This document shows positions 10,929 to 15,628 of a stretch of DNA of 64,000 nucleotides, in pieces. Origin of the DNA: Escherichia coli (GTDB lineage: Bacteria; Pseudomonadota; Gammaproteobacteria; Enterobacterales; Enterobacteriaceae); the NCBI RefSeq assembly GCF_044647545.1, contig NZ_CP172818.1; one strand, 5' to 3'. Under the pieces are notes generated by a model that saw nothing but the letters and a program-made list of their open reading frames with translations, searched no databases and was not told where the DNA came from. A program made the translations under genes and the position numbers. Numbering within the stretch: the first letter of the stretch is position 1; each line of letters begins with the position of its first letter.

Positions 10929-11028
10929 ATGACCGGATAAAGAACTGGTTACGTCGCTCCTTCATCTTCTTTAACTCTTACAAAACCCAAAGAATTCTTC
11001 ACCTTTCATTTCCCTATTCTTTTTCTCC

Positions 11029-11094
<66 letters not shown>

Positions 11095-11105
11095 ATCAAA
11101 AAAAA

Positions 11106-11126
11106 ATCGCCTCTGAACGAGGCGAT
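11106..11126 (-). terminator. hairpin of the hemY rho-independent terminator
   Basis: tcgcctc-tgaac-gaggcga stem-loop 6 nt downstream of the hemY stop, followed on the minus strand by a U-run. Confidence 0.6.
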
Positions 11127-11131
11127 ATAGA

Positions 11132-12328
11132 TTACTGTGACGGGTTATTCTGTAAGGTCAGCATCAAACCGTCGCGGCGCATCGCTGCAGCTTCTTCTGG
11201 TTTGTGCAGTCTGTCCAGCGCGTCGGCAAGCCATGCGTAATCGTAGGCGTCCGGACGTTGTTTCAGCGCCGCGCGGAAGGCGAGCGATGCTTCCTGCCAT
11301 TCGCCGTGCTTCATCAGCGACTGACCCAGTGTGCTCCACAACAACGGGCGATCGCCCACGTTTTTGATCTGTTGGCGCAGCACTTTTTCCAGCTGTTCCG
11401 GGTTATTGGTTTTCAGACGCGGGATCGGCAGCAGCAGGCGATCGTCATACTGGCGTTTCAGGCCGTCGATGATAATTTGCTGGGCGGTGTCATGGTCATC
11501 ACACTCAATAAGGTGTTCCGCCATTGCCACCTGTAACGCCACCTGATGACGCGTTTTCCGGCTTTGGTTTTTCCACCAGTTACGCAAACCTTCGCTACCG
11601 TTATCGGCACGCGCCTGATCCATCAGGCCAATCCATGCCTGTTGTTCCAGCATTGCACGATGTTCTTCATCGCCAACGTGGGCTTTCGCCATTGATGGGA
11701 TGATATCCAGCAGCGAACTCCATGCACCAGTGCGGATATACGCCTGTTCCGCCAGACGTAATACTTCCGGATGGCGTGGCGTAACTTCCAGCAGCTTATC
11801 AACGCCGTGACGTGCTGCATGGTTTTCATTACGGGCCAGTTGCAGACGTACACGGGTGATTTCTACCGGAATTGTGCCGTTGCCGGCCAGCTCCGCTGCG
11901 CGTTCCAGATGTTGGTTGGCGCGTGCTTCATCACCGCGTTGTTGCGCGGCTTCGGCAGCCAGCAGATAGTTCACCACCGGTTGTTCAGCGTGATCGGCAT
12001 TTTTCGCCATCAGCTTTTCAACTTGCTGATAATCGCCTTCCGCTAGTTTCAGCAGCGCCTGTTCGGTCTGCTTACGGGCACGGCGACGCTTACGTCCGAC
12101 AAACCACCCACGGGTGTGTGCGCCTGTGCGGAAGATCCGCCGCAGTAGCCACTCAATGGCAAACAGCACTACCATCGCCAGAATCAAAATAATCGCCAGG
12201 CCAGTGACGCTGGTTTCGATATTGTAGTTGTCGGTCTGAATCAATACGTACCCCTGATGACCGGCAATCATCGGGCCAACCACGATCCCCGCAATCAGCA
12301 AAACAAAGAGCAATAACACTTTTAGCAT
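11132..12328 (-). CDS. hemY: HemY protein (TPR-like, membrane anchored), heme biosynthesis operon
   Basis: 398-aa ORF with N-terminal TM segment; hemCDXY operon context. Confidence 0.9.
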   Translation of the reverse strand: MLKVLLLFVLLIAGIVVGPMIAGHQGYVLIQTDNYNIETSVTGLAIILILAMVVLFAIEWLLRRIFRTGAHTRGWFVGRKRRRARKQTEQALLKLAEGDYQQVEKLMAKNADHAEQPVVNYLLAAEAAQQRGDEARANQHLERAAELAGNGTIPVEITRVRLQLARNENHAARHGVDKLLEVTPRHPEVLRLAEQAYIRTGAWSSLLDIIPSMAKAHVGDEEHRAMLEQQAWIGLMDQARADNGSEGLRNWWKNQSRKTRHQVALQVAMAEHLIECDDHDTAQQIIIDGLKRQYDDRLLLPIPRLKTNNPEQLEKVLRQQIKNVGDRPLLWSTLGQSLMKHGEWQEASLAFRAALKQRPDAYDYAWLADALDRLHKPEEAAAMRRDGLMLTLQNNPSQ

Positions 12329-12330
12329 GG

Positions 12331-13542
12331 TTATTCTCCTTGCGGCGCGGCTGCCGGAGTATCAGCTTGCGGTGCAGGTGCAGGTGCAGGTGCAGGTGCA
12401 GGTGCAGGTGCAGGTTTAGCTTCCGTTGTCCCTGCTGCCGGTTGTGCCAGCAGGTTACGCACGCGGGTCTGCATCAATTTTTCCAGCATCGCCTGGCTTT
12501 GCAGGGTTTCCGGGAGATCCATCGAGATATTTTGCTGGCTTAACTGGTCCACCTCGTCGAGGAACGCTTTGGTGGTGGCATCATCAGTATCGTAGTAAGC
12601 ACGTACCCAAGTGGAGACATTCTCCAGCGCCTGGCGATAAGTCTCTTCCTGATGACGCGGTACAGCTTGTGCAGCGACCAGCAGGCGAGAGCGAATATTT
12701 TCGCGCAGATAGATATCCTGATTTGGCGCTAACAGCGGTACGGCGGTGTCATCACGACGGCGAATCGTAATGAAGTTGTCCATAAAGTTCTGCCAGCTTT
12801 TTTGCAGATTGATACGCCATTCGCTGATGGAACTGGAAAGCTCTTCACCGTCGGAATCCATCGGCGAACCATCGCTGTCATTATCAGCCAGACGCAGGTT
12901 ATCTACCTGATTTGAAAGCTGATTAAGCTTAAGGATAATGCCGTCATAATCCACCTGCGATACCGCAGAAAGGCTGGCGATATCATCGGTAATTGCCCGG
13001 CGAACGGTAATCAGACTCGGGTCATTCATATCCGCCAGGCTGGCGTCTGCACTTTTCAGCAACGCTGCAGCGGTCGTGACGTCCTGATCGCTCCACAGCT
13101 TCCGTCCGGCGAGTTTCACCAGGAAATCAGCCTGAGCCAGCAGCCAGGTTTTAGCATCGCTGCCGGAAATAGTCGCGACCTTTTGTTGGACTTCATCCAG
13201 CTGTTTTGCCAGCGTTTCTTGCTGACGATTCGCCTGCTCAAGCTGTACAGCTTGTTGCTTGATAATGCCTTCCAGCTCAGCTTTTTGGCTCTCCTGGGCT
13301 TTTTGCAGTGCCGTCAGCTGATTAGCCAGGGCATCGCTGGTGGCAGTCTGATTGACGGCCTGTTGTTTACCCCAGCCATACAAACCGACGCCCGCCGCCA
13401 GAGCAATAGCGATAGCCACCGCGCTGAGAATCAATGCGGTATTGTTCTTACTCTTTTTTTCTGTTGCGACAGGTTGTGACGTGGTGTCCACGGCCTCCCT
13501 GGTCTCTTCAACCACGGCGGAGGTTTTTTCTTGTTCCGTCAT
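12331..13542 (-). CDS. hemX: HemX membrane protein with C-terminal Pro-Ala repeat
   Basis: 403-aa ORF; coiled-coil-rich sequence; ends with [19 protein letters not shown] encoded by the hexanucleotide repeat at 12371..12415. Confidence 0.9.
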
Positions 13543-13563: not shown

Positions 13564-14304
13564 TTATTGTAATGCCCGTAAAAGCGCATCGTTGTCAGCG
13601 TTATCGGCGACCTTAATGTCTTGCCAGCCCAGTTCCCGGGCGAGTTTCGCCAAACGCTCACTGACGACCAATAGTCGACAGTGTAGTAACCAGTGCTCAC
13701 GATACCATTGTGGGATCAGCGACCAGAGTTGCTGCAACATTTCACCGCTGGTAACAACGACCGTCGTCACCTCGCGGGATTGCCAGCGCATCGCTTCTTC
13801 TGCACCATCGTAATGGATTGCGCATCGTTGATAACATTCACAAAAAGTGACCTCAGCACCGCGCGCCGTCAGGGTATCCCCAATTAGCTCACGACCGCCA
13901 TTGCCACGTAATATCAGCGCACGTTTGCCCGCAATATTTTGTAATTCAGGTAATTGTAGCAAGACTTCGCTGATTTCCCGATCCTGCGGGTAGAGAATCT
14001 TCTGTCCGCTTACGGTATGTAGTGCCAGTGCGGTGGTGCGTCCAATGGCGAAATAATCAGGTAGTCGGGGCCATTTACGATCTTGCTGATGCAGCTGTGA
14101 TTGGGCAAAAGCAACCGCGTGTTGCGAGAGGGCAAACAACAGATCGCTCTCCCCCAGCGCCGCCAGTTGATCAGCAAGTTGTGGTAATTGTCGACCCGGA
14201 GAAAACTCAATCAGTGGAAAATGCCAGGCCACCTGCCCCAGTGTGCGCAGACGGCTCACTAACTCTTCTCCAGCGGGAGACGGGCGGGTGACAAGGATAC
14301 TCAT
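13564..14304 (-). CDS. hemD: uroporphyrinogen-III synthase
   Basis: 246-aa ORF, 4-nt overlap with hemC stop. Confidence 0.9.
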
Positions 14305-15242
14305 GCCGGGGCGTCTCCGTTATAGACTTCAGCGAGGATCTCGCGCGCGCCGTTATTCAGTAGCTCTTCTGCCAGCGAAATCCCCATTTGTTCGGCATCT
14401 TGCGGCGCACCGCGGCGTTCACCGCGAATAATCTGCGAACCGTCCGGCGCGCCGACCAGCGCACGCAGCCAGATTTCACCATCAATAAGCTCGGCGTAGC
14501 TACCAATTGGCACCTGACATCCGCCTTCGAGACGGGTATTCATGGCGCGTTCTGCGGTAACGCGCAGTGCAGTTTCGTGGTGATTCAGCGCGGCAAGCAG
14601 CTCGCGAGTGCGTGTATCATCAAGGCGGCATTCAATACCGACCGCACCTTGTCCTACCGCCGGAAGAGAAATCTCGGGTGGTAACGCGGCGCGAATACGT
14701 GACTCCAGACCTAAACGTTTTAGTCCGGCTACGGCAAGAATGATGGCATCGTATTCGCCGTTATCCAGTTTACTCAGGCGAGTGCCGACGTTGCCGCGCA
14801 GGGAGCGGATAATCAGATCCGGGCGGCGTTCAGCCAGTTGGCACTGGCGACGTAAACTGGACGTCCCGACGATACTGCCTGCCGGTAACGCATCCAGACT
14901 TTCATAGTTATTGGACACAAAGGCATCGCGAGGATCTTCACGCTCGCAAATGGTGACCAGCCCCAGACCTTGCGGGAATTCAACCGGCACATCTTTCATT
15001 GAATGTACGGCGATATCGGCGCGATTCTCCAGGAGCGCGACTTCCAGCTCTTTAACAAATAAGCCTTTTCCGCCTACTTTCGCCAGCGGCGTATCAAGAA
15101 TCACATCGCCGCGCGTCACCATCGGTACCAGTTCAACGACCAGGCCCGGATGGCTCGCCATCAACTTGTCTTTGACATAGTGTGCCTGCCAGAGTGCAAG
15201 TGGGCTTTGGCGTGTGGCAATTCTTAAAACATTGTCTAACAT
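14301..15242 (-). CDS. hemC: hydroxymethylbilane synthase (porphobilinogen deaminase)
   Basis: 313 aa from ATG at 15242 ([20 protein letters not shown]...); longer upstream ORF start judged unlikely. Confidence 0.9.
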
Positions 15243-15628
15243 GCTTGTTACCGTCATTATCATCCGTGGTCCATCCTAACATCCTTGCCAGAGCGATGTC
15301 AGTGTTGTGGTGAAACGTAGACGCCTGCGCAAACCGTAAAATGAGGTCTGGCAGTGGATCCTGACAGGCGTTTCACGCCGTCGTAATAAGGAATTTACAG
15401 AGAATAAACGGTGCTACACTTGTATGTAGCGCATCTTTCTTTACGGTCAATCAGCAAGGTGTTAAATTGATCACGTTTTAGACCATTTTTTCGTCGTGAA
15501 ACTAAAAAAACCAGGCGCGAAAAGTGGTAACGGTTACCTTTGACATACGAAATATCCCGAATGCCGCGTGTTACCGTTGATGTTGGCGGAATCACAGTCA
15601 TGACGGGTAGCAAATCAGGCGATACGTC

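Follow-up and report, generated by a model that had tools for sequence, protein, structure and literature searches.

A polymorphic GGTGCA repeat near the 3' end of hemX in Escherichia coli is the variable core of the MLVA locus CVN014

The hemX-hemY locus and the encoded Pro-Ala tract

The locus described here lies within a 64,000-nucleotide (64 kb) stretch of Escherichia coli DNA, analysed as a whole and referred to below as the window, in which the genes hemC, hemD, hemX and hemY follow one another in this order, all on the minus strand (Table 1), an arrangement concordant with the RefSeq annotation of the matching genomes. The product of hemX was matched by the Pfam HemX family (PF04375) over residues 130-363, with E=3.9e-108 and a score of 361 bits against a cut-off of 25.9; the name "uroporphyrinogen-III C-methyltransferase" that it carries in databases is inherited annotation only. 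Near the 3' end of this gene, Tandem Repeats Finder detected an array of period 6 and unit GGTGCA, with 7.5 copies and 100% matches, and both this call and direct reading of the sequence bear out the 7.5-copy repeat in minus-strand hemX that an earlier note on this DNA had described. In hemX sense the unit corresponds to CCTGCA (or ACCTGC) and is read in the frame CCT-GCA, the whole array encoding (Pro-Ala)7-Pro at residues 377-391 of the 403-residue protein, followed by 12 residues and the stop codon. The same note had placed a Pro-Ala repeat near the HemX C-terminus, which is correct, although the 19-letter peptide that it gave is one PA too long (17 letters being the true length). No second perfect tandem repeat with a period of at least 4 and at least 4 copies occurs in the 64 kb of the window, and since the array is the sole such perfect repeat there, chance is not a credible explanation for it.

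Table 1. Coordinates of genes and sequence features at the hemX-hemY locus (window positions).
Feature	Position	Strand	Basis or remark
hemY CDS, 398 aa	11132..12328	-	HemY_N PF07219, TPR
CVN014 forward primer site TCCCCGCAATCAGCAAMACAAAGA	12286..12309	+	Exact match; inside the 5' end of hemY
hemY start codon, ATG	12326..12328	-	
hemX stop codon, TAA	12331..12333	-	
hemX CDS, 403 aa including the repeat	12331..13542	-	ORF call and Pfam HemX PF04375
hemY Shine-Dalgarno-like sequence AAGGAGAA	12334..12341	-	Sequence; putative ribosome-binding site
Antisense ORF, 67 aa, TTG start, repeat read as RCRCRC	12340..12543	+	No Pfam match
Perfect hexanucleotide tandem repeat, GGTGCA x7.5 on the + strand	12371..12415	- (as hemX coding)	Tandem Repeats Finder
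CVN014 reverse primer site GCAGCRGGGACAACGGAAGC	12419..12438	-	Exact match
hemD	13564..14304	-	ORF
hemC	14301..15263	-	ORF

On the strand opposite to hemX, the repeat is read through by a short ORF that we judged to be spurious, as it is antisense to a well-supported gene and has no family match. The earlier note had regarded this ORF in the same way, which is reasonable, and had held that the repeat creates it; the version found in K-12 is 57 aa long, and the repeat therefore lengthens the ORF rather than creating it.

The HemX protein is laid out as an N-terminal region, a transmembrane or long helix, the helical HemX domain, and a coil tail that starts at residue 367. In an AlphaFold2 model built from a 100-sequence alignment (mean pLDDT 82.9), a long N-terminal helix spans residues 36-125 and is followed by a helical domain, the last helix covering residues 348-366, and residues 367-403 are modelled as coil with pLDDT values of 56-65, the repeat lying inside this stretch. 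Alignments to distant HemX homologues (5,813 representatives, E<=0.001) mostly stop near query residue 356-370, and the C-terminal tails of these homologues vary in length and composition, with dipeptide repeats being rare. The GGTGCA repeat therefore sits in a poorly conserved, probably disordered part of the protein. An N-in topology, and with it a periplasmic location of this tail, is suggested by a lysine-rich segment ahead of the hydrophobic helix. HemX has been taken as a distant homologue of Mic60 without the mitofilin domain (bioRxiv preprint 10.1101/2022.06.14.496148), and a hemX deletion is viable, with lowered gentamicin sensitivity (PMC12282077).

The array lies close to the hemY junction, as 37 nt separate it from the hemX stop codon downstream and 2 nt separate this stop from the hemY start codon (TAACCATG, window 12326..12341). 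The Shine-Dalgarno-like sequence of hemY, AAGGAGAA, is formed by the final hemX codons CAA-GGA-GAA (Q-G-E). Translation of hemY is probably coupled to that of hemX, and the embedded Shine-Dalgarno sequence is probably one reason why the ...QGE C-terminus is conserved across Enterobacterales. Given this proximity of the repeat to the hemX stop, and the position of the hemY Shine-Dalgarno-like sequence in the last hemX codons, repeat length might alter mRNA structure or ribosome traffic and thereby tune this coupling, and the predicted local mRNA stability does rise by ~2.6 kcal/mol per unit. However, this extra folding energy is confined within the repeat, and the hemY Shine-Dalgarno..AUG segment had the same predicted unpaired probability, 0.17, in all isogenic in-silico mRNAs (0, 2, 4, 7, 10, 13 and 17 units), a constancy that lends no support to a dependence of ribosome-site accessibility on copy number. 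Furthermore, polyproline stalling requires consecutive prolines, and Pro-Ala is not known as a strong stalling motif. A regulatory role of this kind is accordingly rated as very improbable.

Copy-number polymorphism and correspondence to CVN014

Of 5,426 complete E. coli genomes, 5,425 were matched when a 225-nt stretch with the repeat at its centre served as query. Copy numbers come from two sets of 60 genomes, sampled systematically among the 5,425 matches. In the first set, chosen in even steps down the ranking, the matched span was between 30 nt shorter and 60 nt longer than the query, the difference being a multiple of 6 save for one case of -57; the second, independent set, queried with the K-12 allele, agreed with the first. 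Among the 120 sampled genomes, copy number ranged from 2.5 to 17.5 in 6-nt steps, with 13 regular length classes and 2 irregular alleles (Table 2) and a Simpson D of 0.90, these frequencies being those of the 120 sampled rows in a clonally biased genome collection that contains many K-12/laboratory and outbreak strains. The hemX gene of K-12 MG1655 (1182 nt, 393 aa) carries 2.5 copies, which confirms the 393 aa that the earlier note had given for HemX, and with it the proposal that the 30 nt separating this length from the 403 aa found here equal five repeat units. The locus is thus polymorphic, 7.5 copies being one allele among many and not the fixed state of E. coli hemX, which the note had named as the outcome that would speak against polymorphism.

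Table 2. Distribution of GGTGCA copy number in the pooled samples (n=120 genomes).
Copies	Genomes
2.5	19
3.5	6
4.5	10
5.5	17
6.5	17
7.5	16
8.5	9
9.5	7
10.5	3
11.5	7
12.5	2
13.5	3
17.5	2
Irregular	2

Nineteen sequences (18 fetched loci and the window) were read directly, of which 18 contain pure GGTGCA arrays and one has no repeat. All of these alleles are in frame, and RefSeq annotates hemX as an intact CDS of 384-423 aa, with no pseudogene flags. The feature is a variable-number tandem repeat (VNTR), or microsatellite, made of head-to-tail units in variable copy number between conserved flanks. On/off phase variation was considered and rejected, since the unit comprises two codons and every sampled allele is in frame with an intact CDS. 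Apparent length differences could likewise arise from errors of assembly or sequencing where complexity is low, given that some long-read assemblies are prone to error in tandem repeats and that a suspicious poly(A) segment is present near hemY in this very window. Nevertheless, the differences read directly within the array are all exact multiples of 6 nt, consist of perfect units, preserve the frame, and come from finished genomes of many laboratories, and several typing studies that sized the locus by PCR and capillary electrophoresis independently arrived at the same allele range; an artefactual origin is effectively refuted, and we assign it next to no probability.

CVN014 is reportedly one of the 7 loci of the generic E. 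coli MLVA scheme of Lindstedt et al. (2007), which Lobersli et al. (2012) are said to have extended to 10 loci (GECM-10). Both CVN014 primers, whose sequences are published together with the repeat formula (PS-111)/6 (PMC8143711, Table 1 therein), map to the window with 0 mismatches, at one site each, in convergent orientation around the repeat. The resulting amplicon (12286..12438) measures 153 bp, that is, (153-111)/6 = 7 repeats or allele 7, and the corresponding amplicons are 123 bp in K-12 (2 repeats) and 213 bp in PK8568 (17 repeats). Because the published primers map exactly on either side of it, the hemX GGTGCA repeat is the variable core of CVN014, and its polymorphism was already known: according to the typing literature, no locus of the generic E. 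coli scheme varies more than CVN014, which has alleles 2-11 within ST131 alone (PMC3407997), and an allele-frequency table covering 2-12 repeats (PMC5217547) is close to the genome-derived distribution presented here. The locus, the 6-bp period, the 111-bp offset and the allele range (~2-12+) coincide, and nothing substantive differs between the two. In the typing papers examined, neither the host gene of CVN014 nor its Pro-Ala tract is named, and a full-text literature search for hemX with tandem repeat or VNTR returned no paper naming a hemX repeat, the connection with CVN014 being made via primer mapping only.

Two irregular alleles illustrate how complete genomes widen the known spectrum of CVN014, which now extends to 17 repeats and includes an allele deleted for the whole repeat as well as a variant flank that would escape the reverse primer. 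In NCTC11023 (NZ_LS483297.1 4601287-4601654), the whole GGTGCA array and neighbouring codons are deleted, with the deletion junction at a GG microhomology, and the resulting hemX of 384 aa is annotated as intact; in addition, a SNP (gttatcccc for gttgtccc) within the reverse-primer site of CVN014 abolishes the exact primer match. In MFDS1019527 (NZ_CP169309.1 5195091-5195511), 8.5 copies lie beside a divergent flank on the upstream coding side, shorter by 9 nt (ttagcctctgctgctggttgcgcc...), which lacks the reverse-primer site and is similar to that of the cryptic-clade Escherichia sp. MOD1-EC7003. The sequence of this flank suggests recombination at hemX, and a null allele is likely for this strain when MLVA is done by PCR; both the NCTC11023 deletion and the MFDS1019527 flank can be expected to cause null or odd typing results. 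The implications are mostly of annotation value, with little new biology: an anonymous typing marker is now tied to a specific gene and protein feature, its alleles can be read straight from genome assemblies, and the repeat accounts for the differences in HemX length (384-423 aa) among E. coli without loss of function, such that neither these differences nor the antisense RCRCRC ORF of the window represent gene-prediction problems.

Tempo of length change and slipped-strand mispairing as its proposed mechanism

Flank haplotypes were defined by exact identity of the 150 nt flanking the repeat on either side. One such haplotype bears 3.5, 5.5, 6.5, 8.5, 9.5 and 11.5 copies, a second one bears 10.5, 12.5 and 17.5, and the haplotype of O157:H7 bears 5.5, 6.5 and 7.5, with O157:H7 strains overall covering 4.5 (by span) to 13.5 copies. 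Moreover, 7.5, 6.5 and 5.5 copies were each found on two distinct flank haplotypes. The occurrence of several copy numbers on identical flanks, together with this homoplasy, implies that array length changes recurrently and much faster than point mutations accumulate in the flanks, and it supports the slippage-driven length polymorphism that had been proposed from the window alone. Such a population pattern fits recurrent slipped-strand mispairing as the process behind the GGTGCA length changes. Recombination could shift hemX alleles between lineages, but it cannot produce a length series on identical flanks. Single-stranded folding of the array as DNA yields stacked TGCA stems of 4 bp, with an energy of -6.8 kcal/mol (z=-3.45) for the sense strand and of -8.4 kcal/mol for the + strand, the latter with a weak z of -1.5; stems of this type might stabilise slipped intermediates.

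According to the mechanism that we propose, the iterated 6-bp unit would misalign at replication by slipped-strand mispairing, possibly aided by weak hairpin slip-outs that the TGCA palindrome of each unit may permit, and whole units would in this way be added or removed. With a unit of two codons, every allele would remain in frame and the number of Pro-Ala dipeptides alone would change. These changes would fall in the flexible, non-conserved tail of HemX, 12 residues from the stop, where the protein would tolerate them, and the alleles would drift freely, leading to hypervariability both between and within clones. We consider with a probability of about 0.9 that the feature is a coding microsatellite (VNTR) at the 3' end of hemX, identical to CVN014, slippage-prone and tolerated, acting neither as an on/off switch nor on hemY. 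The alleles are assumed to be near-neutral; NCTC11023, which is entirely without the repeat, keeps an intact 384-aa hemX CDS.

Related genes, known repeat systems and a possible role of tract length

The HemX tails of close relatives are all P/A/T/E-rich and end in AAPQGE; Salmonella HemX has no Pro-Ala repeat, and some Citrobacter HemX proteins contain (AP)4-5. The hemX-hemY junction was scanned in species-representative genomes, where a pure hexamer array of 6 units was found in E. albertii and pure arrays of 7 units in Escherichia sp. E1V33 and a cryptic "E. coli" lineage, with only ~2 units in two further Escherichia lineages and no repeat in Enterobacter, Kosakonia, Siccibacter, Erwinia, Mixta and Edwardsiella. 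The hemX microsatellite therefore occurs in several Escherichia lineages, E. albertii included. That the arrays are perfectly pure in E. coli, in E. albertii and in cryptic clades of Escherichia alike could result from homogenisation by slippage, or from selection for the Pro-Ala tract or for its mutability.

Selection on tract length would mean that the Pro-Ala tract acts as a semi-rigid spacer setting the periplasmic reach of the HemX C-terminal end, the array being kept pure and mutable as a contingency or "tuning-knob" locus. The P/A-rich tail in all close relatives (Citrobacter, Salmonella), the purity of the array in several Escherichia species, the conservation of the extreme C-terminus ...AAPQGE in close relatives, and the presence at the same spot of an independent AAP series in Citrobacter sedlakii (394/397/400 aa) are all in keeping with this proposal. 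However, allele lengths are widely spread over 13 classes with no preferred one, the sequenced isolate NCTC11023 has lost the tract wholly while its CDS is intact, tail conservation is limited to close relatives and, in the case of QGE, is at least partly due to the embedded AAGGAGAA of hemY, and no phenotype is tied to CVN014 alleles in the typing literature examined. Both parts of the proposal, the spacer and its selected mutability, are jointly regarded as improbable, and marginally more so is the idea that the tract serves a Mic60-like envelope protein as a "ruler", evolvable and under selection, whose length would determine how far the HemX C-terminus extends across the periplasm or toward HemY, with array purity maintained in Escherichia for the benefit of an adjustable length. 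Were the ruler real, a marker in wide use for typing would turn out to be a functional tuning knob and not neutral junk; a functional role for tract length is the only residual novelty at this locus, and it is unlikely.

Pro-Ala-rich linkers of envelope and multidomain proteins are well known from the OmpA hinge, TonB and the linkers of E2 lipoyl domains, and the HemX tract resembles them in its alternation of Pro and Ala, expected to be extended and flexible-to-stiff, and is itself predicted as non-helical coil. Unlike these linkers, it joins no two folded domains and its length is unconstrained in the population; a role as inter-domain linker was discarded, as the last predicted helix spans residues 348-366 and the tract (377-391) is followed solely by 12 coil residues and the stop. 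Contingency loci of Neisseria and Haemophilus, based on tetranucleotide or homopolymer tracts, presumably share slipped-strand mispairing with the hemX repeat, as well as rapid and reversible change; in contrast, the hemX unit is a multiple of three, no frameshift or switching arises, and all alleles encode full-length HemX. Further parallels are STTR5 and STTR6 of Salmonella Typhimurium and V5 of Yersinia enterocolitica, which are likewise hexanucleotide repeats in ORFs with in-frame unit changes and high diversity indices, but are not orthologous to the hemX repeat. The unit of the MLVA locus V5, GGTGCA, is identical to that of hemX (PMC3053224); orthology was nonetheless rejected, as V5 is reported in a hydrogenase-formation protein, and the shared unit is coincidental.

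At the tail position of the Pro-Ala tract, the HemX proteins of C. sedlakii display a series of AAP units (AAPAPAAPQ, AAPAPAAPAAPQ and AAPAPAAPAAPAAPQ), with total lengths of 400 aa (P0006/P0007), 397 aa (P0016/P0018) and 394 aa (P0025 and others), and these protein sequences suggest a separate 9-nt VNTR in the hemX gene of that species. An E. coli-like HemX of 485 aa (P0001), 99% identical to that of the window, has an interrupted tract, PAPAPAPTPAPAPAP, with one Ala replaced by Thr, and ~80 extra residues located elsewhere than the tract; the protein may be a fusion in a metagenome contig, or its start may have been mis-called.

Just downstream of hemY, positions 10962..11105 of the window are occupied by a 144-nt low-complexity A/T/C-rich segment with ~55 consecutive A's, in which Tandem Repeats Finder called a period-1 repeat (11030..11106). 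The otherwise identical FDAARGOS_497 and roughly 690 other E. coli genomes have at this place 579 nt of a gene for a 196-aa hypothetical protein; megablast matches end at window position 10961, and the replacement segment was matched in no complete genome. The segment may stem from faulty assembly, from engineering or editing of the sequence, or from a genuine replacement.
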